From Candidatus Obscuribacterales bacterium (GTDB taxonomy: Bacteria > Cyanobacteriota > Vampirovibrionia > Obscuribacterales > Obscuribacteraceae), in NCBI GenBank assembly GCA_965228855.1, contig CBDDIJ010000002.1:160001-224000 (forward strand): 64,000 nucleotides of DNA, given 5' to 3'. The position numbers and the translations under genes are program-made. Within the stretch, counting starts at the first letter, position 1. Each line of letters opens with the position of its first letter. Of this stretch, positions 34,981-40,396 are shown in pieces. The notes under the pieces were generated by a model. The model was given only the letters and a program-made list of their open reading frames with translations, did no database searches and had not been told where the DNA came from.

Positions 34981-37041
34981 ATGTCTAGAAACACCCAGCG
35001 CCGCCCAGTGCGTCGCGCCAAATATGCCTTTTCGATGGTGAAACGCTGGCTGCCGATGCCCGATGGCACGAAGCTCGCCGCCACCATCTACCTGCCCACC
35101 GCCCACAAGGAGGGTGAGCGTTTTCCTGTACTCCTCGAACTCCTGCCCTACCGGAAAGACGACACGTTCTTCCTGATGGACTACCCGACCTATTCGTACT
35201 TCGCCAGACACGGCTACATGACCGTGAAGGTGGACATTCGAGGCACGGGTGCATCGCAAGGCGTGACGCCGCCCCGCGAATACTCGGACATCGAGCTCGA
35301 CGACGCCGTCGAAATCATTCGGCAGCTCGCCGACATGCCCGAAGCCAACGGCAACGTCGCGATGTGGGGCATCTCCTGGAGCGGTTTCAACTCCATTCAG
35401 GTTGCGATGCGTCGACCGCCTCAACTGAAGGCGATCATCGCGATGCACGCATCCGACGACCTGTACCACGACGACATCCACTACGTGGACGGTGTGCTGC
35501 ACCTCGACCCGTACCACCTGTTCATCAACCACGAACTCGGTCTGCCGCGCACCCCGCACTACAAGCTCGATGAGGACTACTTCCTCAACCGCTTCGACCA
35601 GACGCCCTGGCTGCTCACTTACCTGTCACAGCAGGAGGACGGCGACTTCTGGCGTCGCAAGTCGTTGCGCTTCCAGGGCTACGACAAAATCAACATCCCG
35701 GTTTATCTGATCGGCGGTCTCAACGACGGCTACCGGGACACGGTGATTCGCATGCTGGAAAACCTTTCCGGTCCTGTGCGCGCGGAAATCGGTCCCTGGG
35801 GTCATTCGTCGCCCGACGACGGCGTTCCCGGTCCGAACTTCGAATGGCAGGATGAAGCCATGGAATGGCTTTCGCCGTGGCTCGCGCCTGAGCGGTCCAT
35901 CGCTGAAGCCAGAAATCGCGGTTCGTCGAGGTCTGCGAACAAGCGCAGGCTGATGACTTTCGTGCGCGACGGTCATGAACCGGATCTCGACCAGACCGTT
36001 TCGCCCGGCACCTGGCGCGTGTTTGATTGGCCGGCAGCTGGTTCCAGCAAGCTGAAACTGTTTCTCGCCCCAGGCGGGAAGCTGGTCAATCGCTTCTTGA
36101 ACCATCAGGGACGAAACAGACTCGCATCCATCGACACCCATACCGCCACCGCCAGCAGTGGCACCGCCGCTGGTTGGTGGTGGGGCGAAACGACAGCGGA
36201 CATGCGCAACGACGACAGCGAATCACTCGTCTACGACAAGCTCGTGGATAAACCGATTCAAATCGTCGGTCTCCCGGAAGTGGGTCTGCGCGTTTCCAGT
36301 AAGAACGTCCGCGCCAACTGGTCGCTGCGTTTGGAAGATGTTTCGCCCACGGGAAAGGTGACGCTGGTGACAGGCGCACTGATCAACGGAGCGCATCTTA
36401 TCGAGCGACTTGGCGCGAGCGAACTCGAGCCGGGTAAAGTCTACGACCTGAGTACGAAGCTCCACTTCACCACGTGGACGTTCCAGAAGGGACATCGAAT
36501 CCGTCTGGCAGTTTCCAACGCTCAGTTCCCCATGGCGTGGCCGTCGGCAGACGTGGTTGAAACCTCCGTTCACACCGGGGGCGCAGCATCGACACTGACA
36601 CTACCGACGGTGCCCTTCGGTAGTGGTTCGCAACCCACGCTGCCGCGCGTGGCGCGCAAACGCTACAGCCCGTATGGAGAGGATGTGTGGTTGGAAGATG
36701 GAAAACCTGACAGTAAACGAGAGGTGATCCGTCGCGCAGACGGCAGCCTCTCTTTCTGCCTGGCAAGCCGTTCTGTCTATGATATTAAACGCCGTCGCTT
36801 CATTGTCGAAGGCAGCAACATCTGGACGACCAACGACAAAACTCCTGCAAAGTCGATGTACGAGGGCGAGATGCAAACCAGCATCATCACGGCTGCCCGC
36901 AAAATCGTGCTTAAGACGAACATAAAAGTAGAGTCGGACGAGAAAAACTTCACCGTCACAGTCACCCGCGAACTGCGCTGCAACGCCCGCAAAGTCCGCG
37001 CAAAAACCTGGACAAAAACAATCCCCCGCCGCCTCCACTAG
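34981..37041 (+). CDS. CocE/NonD family hydrolase (peptidase S15)
   Basis: MPDGTKLAA, PYRK, DIRGTGASQG, nucleophile GISWSG and IGPWGH; PepX-like C-domain (GHRIRLAVS..FP). Confidence 0.92.
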   Translation: MSRNTQRRPVRRAKYAFSMVKRWLPMPDGTKLAATIYLPTAHKEGERFPVLLELLPYRKDDTFFLMDYPTYSYFARHGYMTVKVDIRGTGASQGVTPPREYSDIELDDAVEIIRQLADMPEANGNVAMWGISWSGFNSIQVAMRRPPQLKAIIAMHASDDLYHDDIHYVDGVLHLDPYHLFINHELGLPRTPHYKLDEDYFLNRFDQTPWLLTYLSQQEDGDFWRRKSLRFQGYDKINIPVYLIGGLNDGYRDTVIRMLENLSGPVRAEIGPWGHSSPDDGVPGPNFEWQDEAMEWLSPWLAPERSIAEARNRGSSRSANKRRLMTFVRDGHEPDLDQTVSPGTWRVFDWPAAGSSKLKLFLAPGGKLVNRFLNHQGRNRLASIDTHTATASSGTAAGWWWGETTADMRNDDSESLVYDKLVDKPIQIVGLPEVGLRVSSKNVRANWSLRLEDVSPTGKVTLVTGALINGAHLIERLGASELEPGKVYDLSTKLHFTTWTFQKGHRIRLAVSNAQFPMAWPSADVVETSVHTGGAASTLTLPTVPFGSGSQPTLPRVARKRYSPYGEDVWLEDGKPDSKREVIRRADGSLSFCLASRSVYDIKRRRFIVEGSNIWTTNDKTPAKSMYEGEMQTSIITAARKIVLKTNIKVESDEKNFTVTVTRELRCNARKVRAKTWTKTIPRRLH

Positions 37042-37220
37042 CTTCCCGCCAGTCGGTCCCTCCCCGGGACCCTCTGGTCTCCCGAATTTGCCTACTATAT
37101 GTTTACGTATCTCCGTAAGCCCGAGAATCGTTACGGTGTCGGTGTTCAGAGTCCTTCAAAACTTAAAAGAACACGAAAATTCCCAGACTTGGCTACGTGG
37201 CTATGAGATAGTGTGTTCGC

Positions 37221-37226
37221 TGTCAA
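37221..37226 (-). promoter_or_regulatory. -35 box (TTGACA) of the circle-junction promoter; partner -10 TACGTT at 38468-38463
   Basis: Joining the IS ends gives TTGACA-gcgaacacactatcttg(17 bp)-TACGTT pointing into the bridge RNA. Confidence 0.8.
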
Positions 37227-38188
37227 CAATGAACGCTTAGATGATTGGGATTAAATGGTGTCTTTGTCCTGTAGATCGCCATCATGATGCGAAGTAGCTT
37301 GCGCATGGCGGCGCACAAGATGACTTTCCTTGGTTTGCACTTCTCTGCCAACTTTGTCGCGAATTTTTGAATGGCAGGGTTTGATCGAACTGCGCTCAGA
37401 GACGCCATGTAGAAAACTTTCCGGAGGCGCTTGCAGCCTTTCTTAGACATCTTCGGACGCCCTCGAACAGAAGTTCCAGACTCGCGCAATTCCGGAGTCA
37501 AGCCGCAGTAGCTCTCGACTTCTCTCAACGACTCGAAGGAATCCAAGCCGGAAATTTCCGTGAGAAACGTGAGTGCCGAGATCAAACCGACTCCAGGGAT
37601 GGTTTGCAGTAAGGCGAGATCGTTCTGAAATTGCGGTTCGGACTTGATCAAGAGGTCTCGAGCCTGTTCCAGCAGCAAAATCTCATTGTTGATGAATTCG
37701 ATTTGCCGCTGAAGCGAGATACTCACAGGTTCGTCGAGCCGACCGGACTCGGTACGATTCACGGTTCTGGTTCGGTCGGTTTTGAGCGCATCAATGTGAC
37801 GCTCAATGTTGCGAATCTTCCGGACCACGTCCGGGAGGGGCGTCCAGGTCTTCGGTTGAATCAGTTTGCAAAACTGTGCGATTACCTCGGCATCAATTGC
37901 GTCCGTCTTTGAACGCTTCAACAGGCTTTTGCCAAAGTTTTTGATCTGAACAGGATTGACGACGCTGACGGCAAAACCTTTGTCGCAGAAGTATTCTGCG
38001 AGTGGCTCCCAGAGCTTTCCAGTGGCCTCCATGCAAATTTGTACTTCGCTTTCGGTGTGCTGATTCAGCCACTTCTCAATTCGCCGAAATCCGCTGTCAG
38101 AGTTGTCAGCGTGCAACTTCCGCCCTCGTTCCGAGAGCAGATAGCAATCCACAGTCTCTTTAGAGATGTCTATCCCAAGTGATATCAC
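37223..38188 (-). CDS. IS110 family recombinase/transposase (DEDD RuvC-like + Tnp domain)
   Basis: GIDISK, CMEATG and SKTDAIDA (DEDD); TIPGVG; catalytic-Ser motif RESGTSV; SKKG..RLRK and AAMRKL. GGAGG RBS before GTG. Confidence 0.96.
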   Translation of the reverse strand: MISLGIDISKETVDCYLLSERGRKLHADNSDSGFRRIEKWLNQHTESEVQICMEATGKLWEPLAEYFCDKGFAVSVVNPVQIKNFGKSLLKRSKTDAIDAEVIAQFCKLIQPKTWTPLPDVVRKIRNIERHIDALKTDRTRTVNRTESGRLDEPVSISLQRQIEFINNEILLLEQARDLLIKSEPQFQNDLALLQTIPGVGLISALTFLTEISGLDSFESLREVESYCGLTPELRESGTSVRGRPKMSKKGCKRLRKVFYMASLSAVRSNPAIQKFATKLAEKCKPRKVILCAAMRKLLRIMMAIYRTKTPFNPNHLSVHC

Positions 38189-38214
38189 GATGCGCCTCCA
38201 TTTAGACTTGCCAA

Positions 38215-38456
38215 CCTACACAGGACGCGGATAGAATCTTGTCAGGGCGAGCCTTGTACGCATGCTAAATCGTTCTAGGATTTGCATCTGATAGTGTTCA
38301 GCCTCAGAGGACAAGACAGAAACGGAAGTCCAAACCTCATAGCCTGACTTCGCGGTCATACGCATTTTCCTGGTTTCTTCCGTTTCTCTATCCTCGCGTC
38401 CTCGGATAGCCTTGCCGACAGCAGGACCTGGTGTCAATTGATTGGGTCTGCTGTCA
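38215..38456 (-). ncRNA. Bridge RNA of the IS110 element (ends approximate)
   Basis: 5' hairpin. Target loop inside stem AGAAACGGAAG/CTTCCGTTTCT with guides AAAATGCGT (38368-38360) and GGCTATGA (38344-38337). Donor loop inside stem TCTTGTC/GACAAGA with guides ACACTATC (38297-38290) and CGTACAAG (38260-38253). Confidence 0.88.
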
Positions 38457-38617
38457 ATCTCTAACGTACAACGCAATTTCGAAATTCCGTCATCGAGGGA
38501 TAGCCAAGAACCCACCTCTCGGATCGAATCCGTCTATCAGGTTCCGGCTTCGCGAAATTCCATAATGGCGAAGACTCTGACCAAGTTCAATTGCTACGCA
38601 ACATCCAACCCGCGATC

Positions 38618-40396
38618 TCACTTCGGGATCGAAAACCAAAACGTACTGCCCTTGCCGACTTCGCTTTCGACACCAATTGCGCCACCATGCTGTTCGACAA
38701 TCGCTTTACTAATCGCCAGTCCCAATCCAGTTCCGCTGCGGTTTTCCTCGCCCTCCGGCGCCTGCTTGAACCTGTCAAAAATAGTGCGGAGATACTCCGC
38801 CGCAATTCCACAACCCTCATCAGCGATCCTGAGAGAAACCGCCTCACCAAGCTCCTCTACAGAAACTCTCACGGTGCCGCCATCAGGAGAAAACTTGACC
38901 GCGTTTGAAACCAGATTTACCAGAACCTGAACAACCCGGTCTCCATCTACATTTAGAACCAGTGGTGTCGTCGGCGCCACCACCTTAACGTTCTTCTCGG
39001 CTGCCATCGCAGAGCACGCACCAACCGTCTGATCGAGCAGGTGCTGAACGTTTTGCTCCGACCTCCGCAACTTCATATGTCCAGATTCCAATCGATCTAT
39101 ATCCAGCAAATCGCAAATCAGCTTGACTAAGCGATCGATGCTTTTGCCCATCTGCGACAATCGTTCCCGACCCGACTGATTCAACTCGCCGTAGATTCCA
39201 TCCTCGAGAAGCTCCAGATAGTTCTGCACCGACGTGAGCGGTGTCCGCAAATCATGGCTCACCATTGAAACAAAGTCTTGCTTCATCCGCTCCAACTGCT
39301 TGCGATCGGTAATATTGTGCGCGACGCAAAAGTACGATCCATCAGTCTCTGACCAGGTTACCGACCAGAGCGTATCAACCACAGTGCCGTCCTCACGCAG
39401 CATCCTGTTCTCAAAGGACTTACTAGTCCTTTCAGAACGCGCCTGTTCAAGCTCCTTAACAGTAGCTTCACGCTCGTCAGCGACGATGTACTTAACGTAA
39501 TGCGCCCCCAGTAAGTCATCCGCATCCCTTCCGAGAAGCTCTGCCGAAGCCGGATTCACACGTTCCAGGACGCCTGACTTACTGATTGAAAAGATCATAT
39601 CCGCAGTATTGTCCACGACCGCGCGCTCGCGCATCGAAGCCAGCGTCAGCGCTTCAGCCATCTCCCTGAATGTGTGGTCGAGATGCGCAAGCTCATCATT
39701 ACCTTTAATTGGAGGACTGAGCGGCAAACCACGAGCAAGCCTAACGGTGTTATCCATGAGAACTGAGAGCCTTCCGGTCAATTCGCGAATGACTACGACA
39801 ACAACGACAAATGCGATCACCGTATTCAATACCACACCAATGAACAACCAGCTTTGAATTCGCTTTCGCTGCTCCGTCTGAACCTTCGGATAGAGCTCCT
39901 CCGCCTTGCGTTCCTCTTCTAGAATTTTGTCGAGCTCTTTGGTTAGATTTCCGAAAATTTGCTGCGCCCTGTCCTTGGTCGCGAGGATGCCTTCGTCGCG
40001 TAAAATCCGCTTCAACACTCGAAGTTGATCGGCGCCGTCGCGCATCAATTTCTGCGCACGCTCAAAGTGCTCACGAGCAGCGGGATAATCAGCCAGCGCT
40101 TTGGTTAATATGCGCTCCTCTTTTTCAATTTTCTCGCGCGCCCTGGCATCGCGCTCCGCTCGTTTCTCCTTATCCGCAGCGATGGTGAAACCGGCACCAG
40201 CTGTGGCATTATCAAGAAGAATTCTATGGACTTCGTTGACGTGCGTGATAATCGAACGCGCAATGAATTCGTTCTGGCGCTCCCGCTCGGCTTCTGCAAG
40301 AAGATTGCTGAGAACCAACACAAAGCAAAATTCAAACACCAGTGGCAGTACCACTAGAATCAGCATCTTGTGAGAAAGCTTCAGACCTTTTGCCAT
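38618..40396 (-). CDS. Membrane sensor histidine kinase (periplasmic sensor, HAMP, PAS, HisKA, HATPase)
   Basis: Two TMs; DELAHLD..F..MA (HAMP); PAS ending HNITDRK; SHDLRTPL, NLVSNAVKF, DEGCGI and GTGLGLAI. Confidence 0.95.
   Translation of the reverse strand: MAKGLKLSHKMLILVVLPLVFEFCFVLVLSNLLAEAERERQNEFIARSIITHVNEVHRILLDNATAGAGFTIAADKEKRAERDARAREKIEKEERILTKALADYPAAREHFERAQKLMRDGADQLRVLKRILRDEGILATKDRAQQIFGNLTKELDKILEEERKAEELYPKVQTEQRKRIQSWLFIGVVLNTVIAFVVVVVVIRELTGRLSVLMDNTVRLARGLPLSPPIKGNDELAHLDHTFREMAEALTLASMRERAVVDNTADMIFSISKSGVLERVNPASAELLGRDADDLLGAHYVKYIVADEREATVKELEQARSERTSKSFENRMLREDGTVVDTLWSVTWSETDGSYFCVAHNITDRKQLERMKQDFVSMVSHDLRTPLTSVQNYLELLEDGIYGELNQSGRERLSQMGKSIDRLVKLICDLLDIDRLESGHMKLRRSEQNVQHLLDQTVGACSAMAAEKNVKVVAPTTPLVLNVDGDRVVQVLVNLVSNAVKFSPDGGTVRVSVEELGEAVSLRIADEGCGIAAEYLRTIFDRFKQAPEGEENRSGTGLGLAISKAIVEQHGGAIGVESEVGKGSTFWFSIPK

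Follow-up and report, generated by a model that had tools for sequence, protein, structure and literature searches.

Among the closest described systems is IS621 of Escherichia coli, whose 177-nt bridge RNA (Protein Data Bank [PDB] entry 8wt6) carries a target loop and a donor loop. According to the available text of Hiraizumi et al. (2024; PMC11208158), its left target guide (LTG) and left donor guide (LDG) pair with the bottom strands and its right target guide (RTG) and right donor guide (RDG) pair with the top strands. Top-strand cleavage falls between T9 and position 10, and after the swap each incoming core pairs with the core bases of the right guide in the other loop, and its positions 7-6 with a handshake guide. 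The bottom-strand cut, between 9* and 10*, lies opposite top-strand positions 6|5. This gives a four-base overlap whose positions 6-7 are already unlike between donor and target. By the published rule, target and donor share one core dinucleotide, CT, that is paired by all four guides, and CT occupies positions 8-9 in 16 of 16 natural IS621 guide groups in the file of Extended Data Fig. 5a of PMC11208160. Here we describe an IS621-like element of the IS110 group in a 64,000-nt stretch of DNA (the window) from Candidatus Obscuribacterales bacterium (GenBank assembly GCA_965228855.1, contig CBDDIJ010000002.1, positions 160,001 to 224,000 of the forward strand) that departs from this rule: the core of its LTG is GU, and the core of its RTG pairs with CT.

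Three further systems bear on this element. ISCro4 (IS622), a bridge recombinase used in human cells (PDB 9t56), has a homologous recombinase (E 8.3e-47) and the same bridge RNA logic with handshake guides; the published use, in the text available, joins donor and target only with matching cores, CT or GT, and describes no natural case of unlike cores. ISPpu10 of Pseudomonas putida (preprint 10.64898/2026.03.19.712850) is likewise an IS110 element in a repetitive extragenic palindromic (REP) stem-loop, and its promoter spans the circle junction. The accessible part of that preprint gives a duplicated CT on both sides and strict pairing beside the core, whereas the base beside T9 differs between target and donor in the element described here. 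CazIS110-1 of Caloranaerobacter azorensis (preprint 10.1101/2025.10.25.684509) is similar by description alone: it is reported to be excised via the top strand and integrated mainly through it, the bottom strand being completed by other factors, as the junctions below imply. The word "core" is absent from the available text of that preprint, which is thus silent on unlike cores.

Results

Junctions, Copies, and Empty Sites

The evidence points, with a probability of roughly 0.8, to an IS621-like, bridge-RNA-guided IS110 transposon with a GT target core, a CT donor core and a bridge RNA wired for unlike cores. The analysis showed the anatomy of the element, its junctions, empty sites and recurrence in relatives; the cleavage positions, the order of steps and the completion of the bottom strand (by repair or replication) are inferred. 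The element and the DNA at its junctions are as follows:

37206..38470, minus strand: whole IS621-like IS110 element, 1,265 bp, one core copy (CT) counted at the right end
38473..38479, minus strand: left target arm (LT), AAATTGC, host DNA, one mismatch to the LTG
38471..38472, minus strand: target core GT at the left junction, host DNA, single copy in empty sites
38466..38470, minus strand: right donor arm (RD), TGTAC, first element bases, complementary to the RDG
37208..37214, minus strand: left donor arm (LD), ACACTAT, coordinates checked by script
37206..37207, minus strand: donor core CT at the right junction, last element bases, CT at all 12 right ends visible across the element and its relatives
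37199..37205, minus strand: right target arm (RT), CATAGCC, host DNA, read from the sequence

The left junction reads AAATTGC-GT|TGTAC (38479..38466) and the right junction ACACTAT-CT|CATAG (37214..37201) on the minus strand, both re-derived by script. Only a T is common to the two junctions (one base is ambiguous in the metagenome joint given below). A preliminary description of this DNA had read GT on the left and CT, as the donor core, on the right with only the T duplicated, and this reading held when both junctions were re-read and their coordinates re-derived. That description had also proposed a comparison of copies, in which CT or GT at both junctions of other copies or empty sites would imply a mutation after insertion. 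We found neither pattern in five insertions and three empty sites.

A search of the window's genome (8.2 Mb, six contigs) with the region gave 10 matches, comprising four copies of the element (99-100%), three of a second element (about 70% alike) and three short, flank-only matches. Each of the four copies is exactly 1,265 bp long between identical junctions, ...CGT|TGTACGTTAG on the left and ...CTATCT|CATAGC on the right, with CTACCT at the right end of one copy. The congeneric genome G040 holds one 99% copy, which was the single related locus detected when genome contigs were searched with the recombinase protein, and it too has GT on the left and CT on the right. The junctions are therefore GT on the left and CT on the right in five of five insertions.

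Three empty sites were recovered. An empty repeat copy about 100 bp from one of the four copies (L002) reads ..GAAAGCG-TCATAGCC, that is, the flanks of L002 joined, ...GGGAAAGCG-TCATAGCCACGTAGCCAA. The site orthologous to the G040 insertion is empty in the window's genome, where flanks with 91-92% identity abut at C3:2154394|2154395 and read CAATTGCGT|CATAGCC. The window's own locus is empty in an activated-sludge run (X9), in which a 262-base Logan contig joins 37205 to 38471 and skips 1,265 bases, with one ambiguous base. All three empty sites read GCGT|CATAG, which establishes GT as the target core and CT as the donor core without a later mutation.

The Target Repeat

The target is one position in a REP-like palindromic repeat of the approximate form TTGGCTAC...GCCGGAATTTTCG.....CGT|CATAGCCnnnTAGCCAA, and every insertion lies at this same position of one repeat family. 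IS621 likewise inserts into REP-like repeats. The natural target consensus is about AAAWTGC-GT-CATAGCC. A pattern for the right half of the repeat matched 27 places in the window's genome, and the two bases before CATAG were GT at 19, CT at five, GG at two and TT at one. The element's own right junctions account for four of the five CT places; the remaining one, together with two of the GT places, lacks the left half of the repeat as judged by eye. The 17 recognizable empty repeat copies among the GT places all carry GT, and no empty repeat copy with CT was found among the 27 pattern matches. The GT sites as off-targets of an element that seeks CT were ruled out, given an LTG that carries GU and the lack of any empty repeat copy with CT.

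Copies of the REP-like repeat often follow one another in short tandem arrays that have a period of about 160-210 bp, and occupied copies there have empty neighbors. Array positions in genome G000 are C2:1031262, 1031471 and 1031679; C2:1055013 and 1055172; C2:1643250 and 1643415; and C3:2154380 and 2154551. The second IS621-like element, 1,256 bp long with a left end about 70% alike, is present in three copies (L005, L006, and L007; G000 C2:1121427.., 859218.. and 775357..). Its insertion point, TTTGTCT|ACGCCAC, is in the other arm of this REP-like repeat, with CT on both sides and an LTG that ends in CU. Two related elements thus use one repeat family at two positions.

Bridge RNA and Guides

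The non-coding left end of the element contains guides for all four arms:

38189..38470, minus strand: non-coding left end, 282 nt, encodes the bridge RNA; 70-75% identity among relatives, the best conserved DNA of the element
38360..38368, minus strand: LTG, AAAAUGC-GU (DNA AAAATGCGT), reads in the sense of LT plus core and agrees with this site at 8 of 9 bases
38336..38344, minus strand: RTG, GGCUAUG-AG (DNA GGCTATGAG), reverse complement of CT+CATAGCC, last G opposite target G8
38334..38335, minus strand: target-loop handshake guide GU, can pair with donor T7 (wobble) and A6
38289..38297, minus strand: LDG, ACACUAUC then A (DNA ACACTATC+A), same sense as LD plus C8, in the 7+1 layout of the IS621 template
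38253..38260, minus strand: RDG, CGUACA-AG (DNA CGTACAAG), reverse complement of CT+TGTACG, 8 of 8
38251..38252, minus strand: donor-loop handshake guide GC, complementary to C7 and G6 of the target

The order and register of the guides, with coordinates set by script, are those of IS621, for which the layout was taken from the BridgeRNADesigner code (supplement of PMC11208160). In both elements a long left end encodes an RNA that has one loop for the target and one for the donor, and they share an LTG of 7+2 bases, an RTG of n+2 bases followed by two handshake bases, an LDG of 7+1 bases and then A, and an RDG of n+2 bases again followed by two handshake bases. The donors are nearly alike as well, ACAGTAT-CT-TGTAT in IS621 (designer README) and ACACTAT-CT-TGTAC here. 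As in other bridge RNAs of the IS110 group, the 5' arms of both loops match bottom strands and the 3' arms match top strands, and the bases 3' of the RTG and RDG can pair with positions 7-6 of the other DNA. The two systems part at the core: IS621 has CT in target and donor, whereas this element sets a GT target (AT in most relatives) against a CT donor, so that LTG and RTG disagree at the core position.

These observations support several earlier proposals about the guides. The GT core had been called programmed, and the LTG does end in GU while the 17 recognizable empty repeat copies carry GT. Both right guides, RTG and RDG, end in AG, complementary to CT, as described before. The GC that follows the RDG, earlier likened to a handshake guide, complements positions 7 and 6 of the target. 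The target-loop handshake guide is AU in relatives.

The guide matches exceed chance: when the 282-nt left end was shuffled 5000 times, the four matches were reached individually 158, 158, 126, and 26 times and never all four jointly. A consensus fold of nine related left ends contained 46 pairs, nine of them with compensatory changes that support the stems beside the loops, and placed the guides in two internal loops. We relied on this alignment fold, the single-sequence fold being weak. Rfam gave no match at E up to 1 on either strand of 36900..38800.

Contigs from four runs of four wastewater or sludge studies (X6, X9, X10, and X14), used for variants and joints, contain the element in other copies of the repeat. 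The LTG varies among them at positions 38364-38365, as AAAUUGCGU, which matches the window's own site perfectly, and AAAAAGCGU; in one run the RTG is changed at two bases (38341-38342). No variants at the core dinucleotides (38471-2 or 37206-7) are listed in the contigs of the four runs. The guide variants agree with other versions of the repeat and resemble natural reprogramming within a population. Run X6 also contained two odd joints, 38035->38225 and 38037->38223, both with short sides.

Recombinase and Element Ends

The remaining parts of the element are the following:

37223..38188, minus strand: recombinase gene, 321 amino acids, GTG start, from the open reading frame and its Pfam domains
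37206..37222, minus strand: right end, 17 nt after the stop codon, the short right end of the IS110-group layout
37221..37226, minus strand: TTGACA, putative -35 of a promoter formed only on the circle, with a 17-nt spacer to TACGTT (38468..38463)

The recombinase has the two domains that define the IS110 group, an N-terminal RuvC-like DEDD domain (DEDD_Tnp_IS110, PF01548; E 3.6e-27; 95.5 bits, cut-off 29) and a C-terminal Tnp domain with the catalytic serine (Transposase_20, PF02371; E 1.5e-23; 83.4 bits, cut-off 21.3). IS621 likewise has a two-domain DEDD and serine recombinase. The protein aligned over its full length with the IS621 transposase (8wt6; E 4.6e-50) and with that of ISCro4 (9t56), and the alignment to 8wt6 showed that counterparts of IS621 D11, E60, D102, D105 and S241 are all retained. 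A long non-coding left end lies upstream of the gene and a short right end follows it, and insertion is site-specific without target duplication beyond the core, filled and empty sites differing by exactly 1,265 bases. The IS110-group layout lacks terminal inverted repeats; the termini here are TGTAC... on the left and ...TATCT on the right, though no dedicated search for inverted repeats was made.

In the published IS621 model, a promoter for the bridge RNA is completed at the junction of a circular double-stranded intermediate. Here, too, a promoter may form when the ends of the element are joined. The TTGACA of the right end would supply its -35, and TTGAC is found at the equivalent place in the right ends of relatives; the putative -10, TACGTT, agrees at just three of six positions, and the function is proposed from a reading of the sequence. 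A promoter scan of the linear element found no sigma-70-like site on the minus strand and one on the plus strand at chance level. Two TTGAC motifs about 25 nt apart (GATTGACAG ... AATTGACAC; 38457..38425, minus strand) lie upstream of the bridge RNA stems. Almost every relative has them in its left end, and neither was called by the promoter scan.

Related Elements

The bridge-RNA scaffold was detected in 12 of the 104 genomes of the same family that were searched, the window's genome included, and a pattern for the donor loop was found in seven metagenome contigs. The bridge-RNA region of a relative, used as a DNA query against 400 genomes sampled across the phylum, had no match outside the window's own genome, and among the genomes searched the scaffold was confined to the family. 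The resulting table of relatives, with left ends aligned and right ends located, has 15 rows and 14 distinct elements (L036 repeats L017).

Guides covary with flanks across the 15 rows. Positions 8-9 of the LTG equal the last two bases of the left flank in every row (AT in 12, CT in two, GT in one), the RTG ends in AG in all 15, and the right end of the element is CT in each of the 12 rows where it lies inside the locus. Target and donor are therefore unlike at position 8 in 13 of the 15 rows. For one relative of the AT type (L019), the congeneric genome G023 contains the orthologous empty site, ...TGAAACAT|AACGGTGATTAT (AACGGTG after the junction), which confirms an AT target for a CT donor. 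A search of the 104 family genomes for the empty site of relative L015 matched only its own locus.

Three loci show local peculiarities. In L041 the right junction is CT|TA ATCGAT, and the bases predicted by the RTG (ATCG..) begin two bases beyond the end of the element. L045 (G027 C14:106875..), an ortholog of the L019 site, reads GTGAAACA|AACGGTG without the T9 that is present in G023 (TGAAACAT|AACGGTG); either a one-base difference or a footprint would account for it. The donor loop of L020 (G090 C674) is broken after ...TATAC, with the conserved ACAAGG-TCGCCCTG replaced, and this is probably a decayed copy.

Discussion

A Possible Role for Position 8

The guides and junctions suggest a scheme for unlike cores. 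The donor site would be the joined ends of the circle, predicted to read ACACTAT-CT-TGTAC, and the target reads about AAAWTGC-GT-CATAGCC; T9 alone is common to both, and position 8 is C in the donor and G in the target. Guides that read the bottom strand follow their own DNA, the LTG ending in GU for the target and the LDG carrying C for the donor, and guides that read the top strand, RTG and RDG, both end in AG, complementary to the donor CT. Before exchange, target G8 would therefore be unpaired and face the G of the RTG. By homology with IS621, cleavage of the top strands 3' of T9 and their exchange would follow. The donor end ...ATCT would then sit on the RTG AG and the handshake GU. The target end ...GCGT would sit on the RDG AG and the handshake GC, where C7 and G6 would pair and G8 would not. 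Position 8 would act in this way as a third, one-sided handshake base. The unlike position 8 would extend the non-homologous stretch of positions 6-7, and the product would follow the top strand, with LT-GT-RD as the left junction and LD-CT-RT as the right one.

Thirteen insertion events with unlike cores have both junctions visible, five sites of this element and eight distinct relatives. The top-strand base was kept in 13 of 13 and swapped in none; the events come from several genera and, as kin, are not fully independent. The preliminary description was thus right that each junction keeps its top-strand core. It had also held that the enzyme tolerates a mismatch at the first core position; the unlike cores are real, but tolerance is too weak a term, for the bridge RNA is wired for them and the same wiring recurs in relatives with AT targets. 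We tentatively propose that the base at core position 8 serves as a one-sided handshake that can be programmed and is free of any homology requirement, the LTG copying the target base and the RTG and RDG complementing the donor base. We give this proposal slightly less than an even chance.

The earlier suggestion that the mismatch biases the reaction toward insertion was not upheld. By our own pair counting, in which a wobble counts as half, the target loop (RTG AG plus GU) would form 2.5 pairs with GCGT before exchange and 3.5 with ATCT after it, and in the donor loop (RDG AG plus GC) the count would rise from 2.5 with ATCT to 3 with GCGT. Insertion would then gain 1.5 pairs. A CT target would give the same net gain, since the pair that G8 fails to make is lost once in the target loop, before exchange, and once in the donor loop, after it. 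Two preprints (10.1101/2025.10.25.684509 and 10.64898/2026.08.31.748434) report that the top strand is the main route of excision and integration; the second describes the release of a single strand on excision and proposes that excision proceeds via donor loops. If excision does use donor loops only, the mismatch at the left junction would, if anything, help it.

Points Against and Rival Explanations

Several observations weigh against a bridge RNA wired for unlike cores. In IS621, pairing to both core strands is strongly preferred according to the available text of PMC11208160, and with standard programming the use of CT and GT as orthogonal cores between two bridge RNAs abolished cross-reaction in the accessible portion of a preprint. 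On our own reading of the table of relatives, 13 of 15 rows allow the handshake pair at position 7, the exceptions being L014 and L041; agreement between RT and RTG is poor in L013, L038, and L039, where two of the first five right-flank bases match. The related elements are kin and not independent samples. The single-sequence fold is weakly better than shuffles (z -1.84), and seven of 200 shuffles fold as well. Cleavage sites in this enzyme are assumed from IS621 on the strength of the protein alignment (E 4.6e-50). The sequence of the circle junction is a prediction from the ends of the element; neither a circle junction nor RNA evidence appeared in the four metagenome runs, which are contigs and unable to show either.

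The abolished IS621 cross and the natural element may differ in arrangement. In a CT by GT cross of IS621, both right guides should match before exchange and both mismatch after it, whereas here one would match before and the other after. This different timing of the matches would make the natural wiring a different configuration from the IS621 cross and not mere tolerance. The first core base of IS621 is called only "less conserved" in the available text of Hiraizumi et al. (2024; PMC11208158).

Repair bias could generate the same junctions. Under this explanation a double-strand exchange gives G.G and C.C heteroduplexes at position 8, and host mismatch repair always restores the top-strand base. 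IS621 structures do show bottom-strand cleavage and Holliday-junction resolution, and junction sequences by themselves do not tell repair from completion templated by the top strand. An unrepaired heteroduplex, however, predicts the swapped pattern in half of the copies, and it was seen in none of the 13 events, which span several genera; moreover, the bottom strand of IS621 is left unligated with mismatched bases according to the available text, which already points to top-strand templating. We regard repair bias as unlikely.

The overlap in this clade might instead be T9 alone, a bottom-strand cut leaving position 8 unexchanged and the core being a single base. Only the T is duplicated at the junctions, with one ambiguous base in the joints, and in IS621, by the text available, the protein reads T9. 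Set against this are a recombinase that aligns end to end with that of IS621 and keeps the catalytic residues, and a guide register that is also kept, including the two core-pairing bases of RTG and RDG and the handshake bases. The bottom-strand cut of IS621, again from the available text, lies four bases from the top-strand cut and not one. A one-base core thus appears marginally less probable even than repair bias.

A mutation after insertion, or a boundary misplaced at this single copy, has negligible probability as the source of the GT/CT difference and found no support, being ruled out by five of five insertions alike at both junctions, by the three empty sites with GCGT|CATAG and by an LTG that ends in GU; a register shifted by one base (target core TC, donor TT) is ruled out too, as after GCGU the LTG continues with A and not C.

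Significance of Unlike Cores

We found no published report of a natural IS110 element with unlike cores in the text available, although such cases could be present in the figures of PMC11208160 and in the bulk of its large supplementary tables. The boundary method in the accessible part of PMC11208160 defines cores as repeated bases and prefers CT, and pipelines with such preferences for repeated bases or CT may hide elements with unlike cores.

Bridge recombinases are under development as programmable genome editors, and the available design rules demand identical donor and target cores: the IS621 design software refuses unlike ones (CoreMismatchError, BridgeRNADesigner), and so do the site-selection rules in the accessible text of the IS622 preprint. 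The element and its relatives are natural counter-examples to the matching-core rule with a guide wiring that can be copied, and the pattern is more general than the preliminary description supposed. If the proposed role of position 8 is true and the rule transfers to IS621 or ISCro4, a fixed CT donor could reach AT, GT, and perhaps TT targets without the donor being re-engineered.

The proposal, if true, would also make the uniform junctions evidence within genomes that the top strand alone sets the products of bridge recombination. As a natural read-out of which strand governs the product, the junctions of these elements are relevant to a current debate, in which cut-and-paste transposition stands against copy-out and paste-in of the top strand.

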